This document shows positions 57,791 to 62,640 of a stretch of 64,000 nt of DNA, piece by piece. The stretch is from Escherichia coli (GTDB lineage Bacteria > Pseudomonadota > Gammaproteobacteria > Enterobacterales > Enterobacteriaceae). The notes under the pieces are model-generated. The model was not told the origin of the DNA and did no database searches. It saw only the letters and a list, made by a program, of their open reading frames with translations. Numbering within the stretch: position 1 is the first letter of the stretch; each line of letters opens with the position of its first letter. The position numbers and the translations under genes were made by a program. The DNA lies in NCBI RefSeq assembly GCF_024700885.2, contig NZ_CP117016.1; one strand, written 5' to 3'.

Positions 57791-58969
57791 TCAACGCGCC
57801 ACCCAACCGAGGGTGCGCTGCGCCAGCACATCGCGTGCCGGGGTAAATAATTCCATCGTCATCAGCCCGATGTTGCGCCCGACAACCAGCGGGGTCCAAC
57901 GGTTGGCAAAAAGATGTACAAGGCTGTCCGTGACGCCGATGGTTGCTTCGCGATCGCTCTGTCGACGCTGCTGATAACGGCACAATACGCCGTAATCACC
58001 CATGTCTTCTCCGCGCTCCTGCGCCTGAGTCAGAGTTTCTGCAAGGCTCATCACATCACGCATACCGAGGTTGAACCCTTGCCCGGCGATGGGGTGCAGA
58101 GTTTGCGCCGCATTGCCCACCAGCACAGTGCGATGGGTAATCGGTCTGGCGGCGCGGGTTAATGCCAGCGGATAAGCACTGCGTTTACCAGCGTGGGTAA
58201 TTTTCCCAAGTCGCCAGCCAAAGGCCGACTGGAGTTCACGGCAAAACTTCTCGTCGCTCCACGACAGCACCTCTTCGCGCCGTTCCAGTGGATGACACCA
58301 GACCAGCGAACAGCGTCCGTCAGACATCGGCAACATCGCCAGCGGGCCATGTTGCGTAAAGCGTTCAAAAGCGCGCCCTTCATGCGCAACGGAAGTCGCA
58401 ACGTTGGCAATCACAGCCAGTTGTTCGTAAGGCTCCTGCTGCCAGTCAACGCCGCACACAGTGGCTAACGCTGAATGGGTGCCATCAGCGGCTACCAGCA
58501 CGCGGCCCGTCAGCGTTTCGCCACACTCCAGCGTCACTTCAACATGACTCTGAGTACGGGCAACGTTAGCCACGCGATCCGGGCAATGCAGCGTTACGCC
58601 AGGTGCTTTGCGCAGCAATGCAAACAGCCGTTGCCCGACATTGTGCAATTCGACAACCTGTCCCAGCGCCGCCAGTTGGTAATCTTCTGCGGCGAGGGTG
58701 ACGAATCCGGCATGACCACGATCGCTGACATGCACGGTAGTGATGGCGGTTGCGCAATCAGCCAGAGATTGCCAGACGCCGATGCGCGCCAGTTGCTGAC
58801 AGGTACCCGCCGCCAGCGCTATCGCTCGTCCATCAAAGCCCGGATGAGCATGTGACTCTGGCGCAGTCGCTTCAATCAAATGTACCGGCAGCGCCCCGTG
58901 ACTTAACCGGGAAATAGCCAGCGCCAGCGTCGCGCCCGCCATGCCGCCACCGACGATGATTACGCTCAT
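57791..58969 (-). CDS. ubiH: FAD-dependent 2-octaprenyl-6-methoxyphenol hydroxylase
   Basis: 392-aa ORF with GGGMAG motif. Confidence 0.9.
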   Translation of the reverse strand: MSVIIVGGGMAGATLALAISRLSHGALPVHLIEATAPESHAHPGFDGRAIALAAGTCQQLARIGVWQSLADCATAITTVHVSDRGHAGFVTLAAEDYQLAALGQVVELHNVGQRLFALLRKAPGVTLHCPDRVANVARTQSHVEVTLECGETLTGRVLVAADGTHSALATVCGVDWQQEPYEQLAVIANVATSVAHEGRAFERFTQHGPLAMLPMSDGRCSLVWCHPLERREEVLSWSDEKFCRELQSAFGWRLGKITHAGKRSAYPLALTRAARPITHRTVLVGNAAQTLHPIAGQGFNLGMRDVMSLAETLTQAQERGEDMGDYGVLCRYQQRRQSDREATIGVTDSLVHLFANRWTPLVVGRNIGLMTMELFTPARDVLAQRTLGWVAR

Positions 58970-60291
58970 TGCTTTCTCGCAGCAGCCATCAACGCTTCGA
59001 TTTCTTCCGGCTTTTTCACCACGCTGGCGGTGAGGTTTTCGTTGCCGGTTTCGGTAATCACAATGTCGTCTTCAATACGAATGCCGATACCGCGATATTG
59101 TTCTGGCACATCCGCATCCGGCGCGATATACAGACCAGGCTCTACGGTCAGTACCATCCCCGGTTCCAGAATGCGCGAGCGATCCTGGCCATAAACGCCA
59201 ACGTCATGGACATCCAGTCCTAACCAGTGGCTAAGGCCATGCATAAAGAAAGGACGATGGGCGTTCTGAGCGATCAGTTCATCAACATCACCTTTCAGGA
59301 TGCCGAGTTTTACCAGGCCGCTAACCATGATACGCACCACTTCACCAGTGACTTCCTGCATGGAAGTTCCCGGACGATACAGGCGCAGGCTGGTTTCGAG
59401 AGACTCCAGCACAATGTCGTAGATTTCACGCTGGGCCTGGGTGAATTTGCCGTTGACCGGGAAGGTGCGGGTAATATCGCCCGCGTAACCTTTGTATTCA
59501 CAACCCGCGTCAATCAACACCAGGTCACCGTCGCGCAGTTCACTCTCGTTTTCGGTGTAGTGCAGAATGCAGCCGTTTTCACCGCTGCCGACAATGGTGT
59601 TATAGGACGGATAGCGCGCACCGTGGCGGTTAAATTCGTGGTGAATTTCGCCTTCCAGATGGTACTCGAACATTCCCGGACGGCATTTTTCCATCGCCCG
59701 GGTATGCGCCAGGGCGGTGATTTCTCCCGCGCGGCGAAGTACGGCAATCTCTTCCGGCGATTTGAACAGGCGCATTTCATGAACAATGGGACGCCAGTCG
59801 ATCATCGTTGCTGGCGCGGTGAGATTTTGTCGCGAGCCTTTACGCAGCTTTTCCAGCGCGCTGTTCACGATTTCATCAGCATATGCATATTCGCCCTGGG
59901 CGTGGTAAACCACATCCAGACCATTAAGTAGTTGATAAAGTTGCTGATTAATTTCGCTGAATGCCAGTGCGCGGTGAACGCCCAGTTTCTCTGGCGCGGC
60001 ATCCTGACCTAAACGACGGCCAAACCAGATCTCCGCCGTCAGGTCGCGAACGCGGTTAAACAGAACGCTGTGGTTATGAGTGTCATCGCTTTTAATCAGC
60101 ACCAGCACCGCTTCCGGTTCGTTAAAGCCGGTGAAGTACCAGAAGTCACTGTTCTGACGATAGGGGTATTCGCTGTCGGCGCTACGTGTTACTTCTGGTG
60201 CAGCAAAAATCAGCGCGGCGCTGCCGGGTTGCATTTGCTCCACCAGGGCCTGACGGCGACGCTGAAACTCTTGCCGGGATATCTCACTCAT
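58966..60291 (-). CDS. pepP: Xaa-Pro aminopeptidase
   Basis: 441 aa from MSEISRQEFQRRRQAL...; ORF-track extension to 60504 rejected. Confidence 0.9.
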   Translation of the reverse strand: MSEISRQEFQRRRQALVEQMQPGSAALIFAAPEVTRSADSEYPYRQNSDFWYFTGFNEPEAVLVLIKSDDTHNHSVLFNRVRDLTAEIWFGRRLGQDAAPEKLGVHRALAFSEINQQLYQLLNGLDVVYHAQGEYAYADEIVNSALEKLRKGSRQNLTAPATMIDWRPIVHEMRLFKSPEEIAVLRRAGEITALAHTRAMEKCRPGMFEYHLEGEIHHEFNRHGARYPSYNTIVGSGENGCILHYTENESELRDGDLVLIDAGCEYKGYAGDITRTFPVNGKFTQAQREIYDIVLESLETSLRLYRPGTSMQEVTGEVVRIMVSGLVKLGILKGDVDELIAQNAHRPFFMHGLSHWLGLDVHDVGVYGQDRSRILEPGMVLTVEPGLYIAPDADVPEQYRGIGIRIEDDIVITETGNENLTASVVKKPEEIEALMAAARKQ

Positions 60292-60316
60292 AACACTCTC
60301 CTTACGTTTTTTGTTT

Positions 60317-60895
60317 TTAGTGTAGAGTCGGTTTTTGTACTTCTGGCGCGGTCGGTTGCGGATGAGTAAAGGTGTCGTGGCATAACAGCGCGGCAACACG
60401 AACGTATTCGATGATCTCTTCAAGCGACATTTCAAGCTCTTCCTGATCTTCGTCTTCGTCGTAGCCCAGCTGCGCGATGTTACGCAGATCGTCGATGGCT
60501 TCACCGGTTTCGCCGGTCACTTTGTCCAGCTTCGGTTGCGTAACGCCAAGACCAAGCAGGAAGTGATTGACCCAACCTGCCAGCGCATCAGCCCGATCGA
60601 AAACGCTGACATCATCGCCATCAGGCAGATAAAGTTGAAAAAGGAAGCCGTCATCCTGCAGGGCATCGCTGGTGGCAGAGTGCATTTTACGCAGTGCCTG
60701 TGCCAGCTCATGACCGAAAGCCATGCCTTCGTTCGTCAGGTCGTGAAGTAGCGGCAGCCATGAGCTGTCATCGTTACCGCCACATATCATCCCACTGATT
60801 AAACCATGCATCTCAGCAGGGGTCAGACCCGTCCCTTGTTGGTTCAGATACTGGTTCATTTCGTTGTAACCAGGCATTTCGTTCTGTATAGACAT
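60317..60895 (-). CDS. ygfB: UPF0149-family protein
   Basis: 192 aa from [10 protein letters not shown]... Confidence 0.85.
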
Positions 60896-60996: not shown

Positions 60997-61392
<396 letters not shown>

Positions 61393-61433
61393 CACTTTTC
61401 GGTTTACTGTGGTAGAGTAACCGTGAAGACAAA

Positions 61434-61617
61434 ATTTCTCTGAGATGTTCGCAAGCGGGCCAGTCCCCTGAGCCGATATTTCATACCACAAGAATGTGGC
61501 GCTCCGCGGTTGGTGAGCATGCTCGGTCCGTCCGAGAAGCCTTAAAACTGCGACGACACATTCACCTTGAACCAAGGGTTCAAGGGTTACAGCCTGCGGC
61601 GGCATCTCGGAGATTCC
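61434..61617 (+). ncRNA. ssrS: 6S RNA (RNA polymerase sigma70-holoenzyme regulator)
   Basis: Matches the remembered 6S sequence ATTTCTCTGAGATGTTCGCAAGCGGGCCAGTCCCCTGAGCC...GGCATCTCGGAGATTCCCT. Confidence 0.9.
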
Positions 61618-61691
61618 CTTCTTATCTGGCACCAGCCATGACGCAACTACCAGAACTCCCACTGACATTATCCCGACAAGAAATCCGCAAA

Positions 61692-62240
61692 ATGATTCGG
61701 CAACGTCGTCGTGCGTTAACGCCGGAACAACAGCAGGAAATGGGTCAACAAGCTGCTACCCGGATGATGACTTATCCCCCAGTGGTGATGGCGCATACGG
61801 TCGCTGTATTCCTCTCTTTTGATGGCGAACTCGACACCCAGCCACTCATAGAACAACTCTGGCGCGCCGGTAAGCGCGTATATCTTCCAGTTTTGCATCC
61901 CTTTAGTGCCGGTAATTTGCTGTTCCTGAATTACCATCCGCAAAGCGAACTGGTGATGAACAGGTTGAAGATCCATGAGCCAAAACTGGATGTGCGTGAC
62001 GTGCTACCCCTTTCCCGATTAGACGTGTTGATCACACCGCTGGTCGCCTTTGATGAGTACGGTCAGCGCCTGGGAATGGGCGGTGGTTTTTATGATCGAA
62101 CCTTACAAAACTGGCAGCACTATAAAATGCAACCGGTGGGTTATGCGCATGATTGTCAGTTGGTGGAAAAACTCCCCGTTGAAGAGTGGGATATCCCACT
62201 TCCTGCGGTGGTTACACCGTCGAAAGTCTGGGAGTGGTGA
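61692..62240 (+). CDS. fau: 5-formyltetrahydrofolate cyclo-ligase
   Basis: 182 aa from MIRQRRRALTPEQQQEMGQQAA...; lies just downstream of 6S RNA; ORF-track extension from 61494 would run through ssrS and is rejected. Confidence 0.85.
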   Translation: MIRQRRRALTPEQQQEMGQQAATRMMTYPPVVMAHTVAVFLSFDGELDTQPLIEQLWRAGKRVYLPVLHPFSAGNLLFLNYHPQSELVMNRLKIHEPKLDVRDVLPLSRLDVLITPLVAFDEYGQRLGMGGGFYDRTLQNWQHYKMQPVGYAHDCQLVEKLPVEEWDIPLPAVVTPSKVWEW

Positions 62241-62301
62241 GGGCGACACACCTGCATCGCCCTGATTGACATCGTTGATTCTTTAACCTAATTTAGTGAG
62301 T

Positions 62302-62445
62302 AAGGGTAAGGGAGGATGACTCCTCCCCTGAGACTGACTGTTAATAAGCTGGGAAACTTATGAGTAACAGTACAATCAGTATGATGACAAGTCGCATCAT
62401 AACCCTTCTCCTTCAAGCCCTCGCTTCGGTGAGGGCTTTACCGTT
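62302..62445 (+). ncRNA. sibC: SibC-like antisense sRNA (type I antitoxin), ends approximate
   Basis: Putative promoter TTGACA (62266-62271), 17-bp spacer, TAATTT (62289-62294); fully antisense to ibsC; 3' hairpin AGCCCTCGCTTCGGTGAGGGCT. Confidence 0.5.
62341..62400 (-). CDS. ibsC: IbsC-family 19-aa hydrophobic toxin (type I toxin-antitoxin)
   Basis: Reverse strand encodes ATG ATG CGA CTT GTC ATC ATA CTG ATT GTA CTG TTA CTC ATA AGT TTC CCA GCT TAT TAA = MMRLVIILIVLLLISFPAY; AAGGAG Shine-Dalgarno upstream. Confidence 0.75.
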   Translation of the reverse strand: MMRLVIILIVLLLISFPAY

Positions 62446-62588: not shown

Positions 62589-62618
62589 TAAAAAAACGGG
62601 CAAGTCAGTGACCTGCCC
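62589..62618 (-). terminator. rho-independent terminator of serA
   Basis: On the minus strand, CGGGCAGGTCACTGACTTGCCCG followed by TTTTTTT. Confidence 0.7.
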
Positions 62619-62640
62619 GTTGATTTTCAGAGAAGGGGAA

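Follow-up and report, generated by a model that had tools for sequence, protein, structure and literature searches.

A longer Fau protein is favoured at the known ssrS-fau (ygfA) operon of Escherichia coli

The fau (ygfA) gene that follows the 6S RNA gene in Escherichia coli very probably starts at the ATG at position 61638 of the DNA analysed here, 54 nt (18 codons) upstream of the start used in the K-12 reference. This start is preferred because the PGAP annotation, the coverage of protein family profiles, solved structures and conservation across 109 species all point there. The disagreement between the K-12 reference and PGAP, in which the comparative data favour the longer protein, is the sole non-trivial output of the analysis, and it is an annotation point, not a new system. 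The K-12 reference model (182 aa) probably lacks 18 N-terminal residues, two invariant arginines among them; expression clones made from that model would be affected by the missing residues, and the change of start also alters how the Rho-dependent attenuator between 6S and fau is read. The locus itself is a textbook one that the first-pass annotation had recognised correctly, and the value of the present work lies in annotation hygiene.

The window, which is the whole stretch of 64,000 nt that was analysed, holds in its last 5 kb the E. coli pepP-ygfB / zapA-ssrS-fau / sibC-ibsC / serA region. When a 1.5-kb query around the locus was used, the segment was found in 5425 of 5426 complete E. coli genomes, and it is 100% identical to several chromosomes. 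A search with the Rfam covariance model RF00013 gives a match at 61434-61617 on the plus strand (139.8 bits, the gathering score being 46.4; E = 2e-29) that covers model positions 1-187 of 187 and is thus full length. The first-pass annotation had placed 6S RNA at exactly these coordinates, a placement borne out by this match, by identity to the K-12 ssrS sequence at 184 of 184 nt, and by the ssrS ncRNA feature that PGAP annotates at the same coordinates in the 100%-identical genome NZ_CP018957. Just two non-canonical pairs occur over all helices when the sequence is aligned to the RF00013 consensus structure. The characteristic architecture of a long closing stem, a central bubble and a terminal stem is present in the covariance alignment, and the sequence is that of the experimentally studied K-12 RNA. 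The feature corresponds to the mature 6S RNA of 184 nt. 6S RNA is a small RNA that regulates RNA polymerase; the identical K-12 molecule binds the sigma-70 RNA polymerase holoenzyme and templates pRNA synthesis (literature including PMC3299989).

The gene upstream of ssrS in the conserved zapA-ssrS-fau array is zapA (61063-61392, plus strand; PF05164, E = 9e-21, and PGAP). Transcription of ssrS has been described from a proximal sigma-70 promoter and a distal sigma-70/sigma-S promoter (PMC10406553). The proximal promoter, P1, is matched by the promoter scan at 61389-61418 on the plus strand, as ATGACA and TAGAGT separated by 18 nt, with an extended -10 TG. Maciag et al. (PMC3141248) describe a CG at -3/-2 of this promoter, and because that dinucleotide falls on 61422-61423, the P1 +1 is assigned to 61425, 9 nt before the mature 6S 5' end. 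A candidate for the distal promoter, P2 (61174-61202, plus strand; TTGCAA and TAGAGT separated by 17 nt), was read from the sequence, located by script, and lies inside the zapA coding sequence. Its -10 hexamer is identical to that of P1; it scores 8/12, which is under the scan threshold, and so it goes unreported by the consensus scan. Candidate P2 is predicted to start transcription near 61210, some 224 nt ahead of mature 6S. Work by Kim and Lee in 2004 is said to have put the start of the distal ssrS promoter at -224. From these two starts, precursors running to the 6S 3' end are predicted to measure 193 nt (P1) and 408 nt (candidate P2), close to the 194 nt and 404 nt quoted for 6S precursors in PMC10406553.

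Downstream of 6S and on the same strand lies the folate-salvage gene fau, as the first-pass annotation had said, with its end at 62240. Matches to PF01812 (163.0 bits against a cut-off of 27, E = 1e-47), TIGR02727 (179.7 bits against 84.9) and the enterobacterial equivalog NF007661 (447.7 bits against 343) identify the product as a 5-formyltetrahydrofolate cyclo-ligase. By homology and from the ygfA literature (PMC7641849), Fau would be expected to convert 5-formyl-THF to 5,10-methenyl-THF in an ATP-dependent reaction. Several other elements are found beyond the gene. The SibC antitoxin sRNA (62266-62416, plus strand; RF00113, 136.5 bits, full length) begins 25 nt after the fau stop codon, and the ibsC type I toxin open reading frame lies antisense to it at about 62341-62400 on the minus strand. 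E. albertii (L008) and Citrobacter werkmanii (L004) have the same SIB element after fau. A strong minus-strand hairpin of terminator type at 62595-62621 (a 12-bp stem with seven GC pairs, followed by a T-run), about 20 nt past the serA stop, is presumably the serA terminator.

Two ATG codons have been used as the start of fau. The one at 61638, which PGAP uses in the identical genome (WP_001298273.1), gives a protein of 200 aa (61638-62240, plus strand) and begins 21 nt after the 6S end, leaving a gap of 20 nt. The one at 61692-61694, which the K-12 reference uses (NC_000913.3; b2912 / NP_417387.3), gives a protein of 182 aa and begins 75 nt after the 6S end, leaving a gap of 74 nt; it encodes Met19 of the longer form and is probably an internal methionine. 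The distance of 75 nt between 6S and fau given in the first-pass annotation matches the b2912 start and holds to that extent, but as a statement about the gene it probably needs correction to 61638 in view of the profiles, structures, conservation and PGAP.

The profiles favour the longer form in both score and coverage. Depending on the profile (PF01812, TIGR02727 or NF007661), the long form scores 8 to 21 bits higher than the short one, with NF007661 rising from 426.7 to 447.7 bits. The short form enters NF007661 at position 17 of 198 and each of PF01812 and TIGR02727 at position 8, whereas coverage by the long form begins at position 1-2 of the profiles, and at position 1 in PF01812 and TIGR02727. 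Profile position 1 is reached at residue 13 of long Fau, and the N-terminal R/K-x-x-(I/L)-R motif is complete with the 61638 start only, not with 61692. The structures of MTHFS tell the same way: with all four of those compared (2jcb, 1ydm, 1sou and the human 3hxt), the alignment starts at long-form residue 12-14, upstream of Met19.

For the cross-species comparison, loci were gathered by a plain-DNA scan of one genome per species with a conserved 6S 3'-arm pattern, which gave 120 loci from Enterobacterales, Vibrionaceae, Orbaceae, Halomonadaceae, Marinobacter, Pseudomonas and others. Full-length 6S was confirmed by Rfam in 20 of the 20 loci checked, with the 6S 3' end 30-34 nt past the pattern. 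For 112 loci, 600 nt or more of downstream sequence is available, and in 109 of these fau lies directly after 6S on the same strand. The other three (L039, L097 and L117) have the 6S 3'-arm pattern without a fau homologue downstream; L117 has an unrelated open frame of 335 residues, not trimmed to a start codon, where fau would be expected.

The 109 fau N-termini were anchored on the R-x-x-(I/L)-R motif. The column of E. coli Arg13 is arginine in 108 of 109 species and that of Arg17 in all 109, and both residues lie upstream of the K-12 start at Met19. The Met19 column itself is start-capable in just five of the 109 species (Escherichia and a few close relatives) and is elsewhere occupied by His, Gln, Leu, Lys, Glu and others. 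Upstream of Arg13, 104 species have an in-frame ATG, and GTG or TTG takes its place in the remaining five. The 29 relatives at 74% identity or more all have a start of the form ATG-ACN, 17-61 nt past 6S; the gap from 6S to fau, 20 nt in E. coli with the 61638 start, has a median of 34 nt across species. Arg13 and Arg17 presumably have a functional role in Fau; what was computed here is their conservation. A literature search on a catalytic role for the N-terminal Lys/Arg of MTHFS returned no relevant result.

It may be asked whether the reference annotation could nevertheless be right, with fau starting at ATG 61692 and 61618-61691 serving as an untranslated spacer. The curated K-12 reference retains this ATG (b2912 / NP_417387.3), and the short form is still above the Pfam and NCBIfam cut-offs. 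Such a protein would, however, lack both Arg13 and Arg17, would enter PF01812 and NF007661 only at positions 8 and 17, and would begin at a codon that is not start-capable in 104 of the 109 species and that PGAP passes over for 61638; all four full-length PDB homologues align upstream of it. A start at 61692 is accordingly improbable. A second arrangement, in which both ATGs are used in Escherichia to give the 200-aa enzyme along with a 182-aa N-terminally truncated proteoform, would fit the observations that the two codons are in frame, that neither has a Shine-Dalgarno sequence, and that Met19 is kept in E. coli, E. albertii and three other close relatives. That same restriction to five of 109 species would make any short form lineage-specific, and a product without the two invariant arginines would be unlikely to be an active cyclo-ligase, so that dual initiation is also judged unlikely. 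The single start at 61638 remains the preferred reading.

Signals near the start codons do not help to choose between them. No Shine-Dalgarno sequence was found before ATG 61638 or before ATG 61692, and across species a Shine-Dalgarno-like 4-mer precedes fau in only 16 of 104. No experimental start-site evidence for fau was found, and the TRAINSPOTTER N-terminomics supplements hold no entry for ygfA, fau or b2912.

The frame of fau is also open further upstream, and the list of open reading frames accordingly includes one at 61494-62240 on the plus strand that reads through 6S. The first-pass annotation had dismissed this frame as an artefact. For 61494-61637 the dismissal stands: this stretch overlaps the 6S gene, its 48 residues have no family match in Pfam, and in many other species the frame is shut by in-frame stops between 6S and fau. 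The dismissal goes too far by 54 nt, those between 61638 and the K-12 start. The notion that 61494-62240 is a real protein with its N-terminus encoded in the 6S gene has in its favour the open frame that E. coli shows from 61494 onwards. Beyond the absent family match and the stops in other species, however, the region is a highly structured and abundant RNA, and the 6S covariance model accounts for the conservation of its sequence. Coding through 6S was rejected, and the long frame as a protein is effectively refuted. Another upstream-extension artefact of the same listing is seen at pepP (58966-60504, minus strand), for which the mechanical open reading frame gives 512 aa from a GTG and PGAP gives 441 aa.

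The junction between 6S and fau (61618-61710, plus strand) has no terminator hairpin and is C-rich, G-poor and rut-like. The first-pass annotation had named a strong intrinsic terminator between ssrS and fau as the finding that would refute it. None exists: the consensus scan shows no terminator-like site in 61617-61700, and the fold of the 121-nt junction is no stronger than that of shuffled sequences (z = -1.17). Across species, a weak hairpin with a T-tract follows 6S in only 10 of 104, under loose criteria. One terminator-like site was picked up inside fau, at 62067-62082 on the plus strand (a 6-bp stem with a poor T-tract and the tail GTGGTTTTTA), and was set aside as chance-level, since 2 sites were found against 1.7 expected.

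In base composition the junction stands out. Between 61618 and 61695 there are 26 C against 11 G, which reaches the 98.5th percentile when C-minus-G is taken over the whole window. Rho loading sites are by general acceptance marked by RNA that is C-rich, G-poor and weakly structured, as a correlate only. In the abstract of a 2011 paper by Chae, Rho termination sites reportedly lie some 90 nt beyond the 6S 3' end; in the present coordinates we take this to be near 61707. A passage by Cavanagh et al. (2012; PMC3299989), which cites Chae et al., locates Rho-dependent termination within the 5' portion of ygfA. The composition of the junction is consistent with such termination in the fau 5' region, the termination itself being that described in this passage. 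Over the first 95 nt past 6S, the mean (C-G)/length is +0.138 and the value is positive in 99% of 104 gammaproteobacterial species; over the fau body the mean is +0.015 and the value is positive in 55%. The excess of C over G follows 6S in nearly every species and is absent from the fau body, which suggests wide conservation of the Rho-dependent attenuator described in E. coli.

The lack of a hairpin terminator does not amount to free read-through, and it is an inadequate test of co-transcription in E. coli. From the site of Rho-dependent termination given in the same passage of PMC3299989, near the beginning of ygfA, it follows that the majority of 6S precursors fall short of a full dicistronic RNA and that fau expression relies on read-through. 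An independent promoter for fau would be one route to expression if Rho stops most ssrS transcripts within the first part of fau, as that passage has it, and the adjacency of the two genes would then be a matter of synteny only, without functional co-transcription. Against this, the promoter scan found no promoter-like site within or after 6S, the intergenic gaps are as short as described above, the linkage holds in 109 of 112 loci, and a dicistronic ssrS-ygfA transcript has been described (PMC7641849). A promoter of its own is thus highly improbable for fau, and expression by read-through from ssrS is the reading followed below.

Taken together, a joint account of the locus, with ssrS transcribed from two promoters, Rho attenuation after 6S, and a read-through fau mRNA translated from 61638, is considered probable. 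On this account ssrS would be transcribed from P1, starting at 61425, and from the distal P2, starting near 61210 inside zapA, as the literature and the sequence both support. RNase E/G would then cut off the 5' leader, as described in the literature, to leave the mature 6S 5' end at 61434. With no hairpin terminator after 6S, the polymerase would enter the C-rich, G-poor and weakly structured stretch from 61618 to about 61710, the putative Rho loading site. Rho would end most transcripts in the fau 5' region, the termination being that of the published passage and the distance from 6S, about 90 nt, being the reported one. The 3' exonucleases known from the literature would trim these transcripts as far as 61617, where the 6S closing stem has its base. 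Transcripts that escape Rho would serve as the fau mRNA. From these, the ATG at 61638, preceded by a pyrimidine-rich leader of 20 nt and no Shine-Dalgarno sequence, would be translated to give the 200-aa 5-formyltetrahydrofolate cyclo-ligase.

Because the putative Rho loading region falls inside the translated 5' end of fau when the 61638 start is used, we infer that weak translation of fau might leave this region exposed, which would couple fau translation to read-through. The fuller proposal, that the K-12 start is wrong by 18 codons and that initiation without a Shine-Dalgarno sequence sets the frequency of Rho termination, and hence both 6S 3'-end formation and Fau expression, is a tentative one and on balance doubtful. 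If the coupling were true, the C-rich junction conserved across Gammaproteobacteria would be its signature, and the expression of Fau, which has been linked to persisters, would be set by inefficient initiation at fau.

Compared with known systems, the locus holds few differences. Relative to ssrS of E. coli K-12 (b2911, RF00013), it has the same sequence and the same zapA-ssrS-fau-sibC/ibsC-serA context; there is no sequence difference, only one of stated length, 183 nt in the K-12 annotation and 184 nt in PGAP/Rfam and Brownlee. The fau gene has the same PF01812, TIGR02727 and NF007661 matches as K-12 fau/ygfA (b2912), from which it differs at nine nucleotides and at one residue (Thr to Met at long-form residue 164). 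The reference protein begins at Met19 (182 aa), whereas PGAP and the evidence given here favour the 200-aa form.

The ssrS-ygfA operon with Rho-dependent attenuation reportedly goes back to work by Hsu in 1985, Kim and Lee in 2004 and Chae in 2011. The zapA-ssrS-fau array, the dicistronic ssrS-ygfA transcript and the conservation of the ssrS-ygfA operon across Proteobacteria have been described (PMC7641849). The first-pass annotation's reference to a known dicistronic operon is likewise documented in the literature (PMC3299989, PMC7641849), and the same-strand adjacency is observed here. The whole locus is this operon and is already known: the locus is the same, P1 fits the published CG at -3/-2, and the C-rich junction has no intrinsic terminator. 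The one departure from the published operon concerns the position of the attenuator. Were 61638 the start of fau, translated sequence would contain both the published termination zone and the Rho loading region, and the two would not straddle an untranslated spacer. Moving the termination zone into translated fau in this way is a reinterpretation of a known operon, not a new system.
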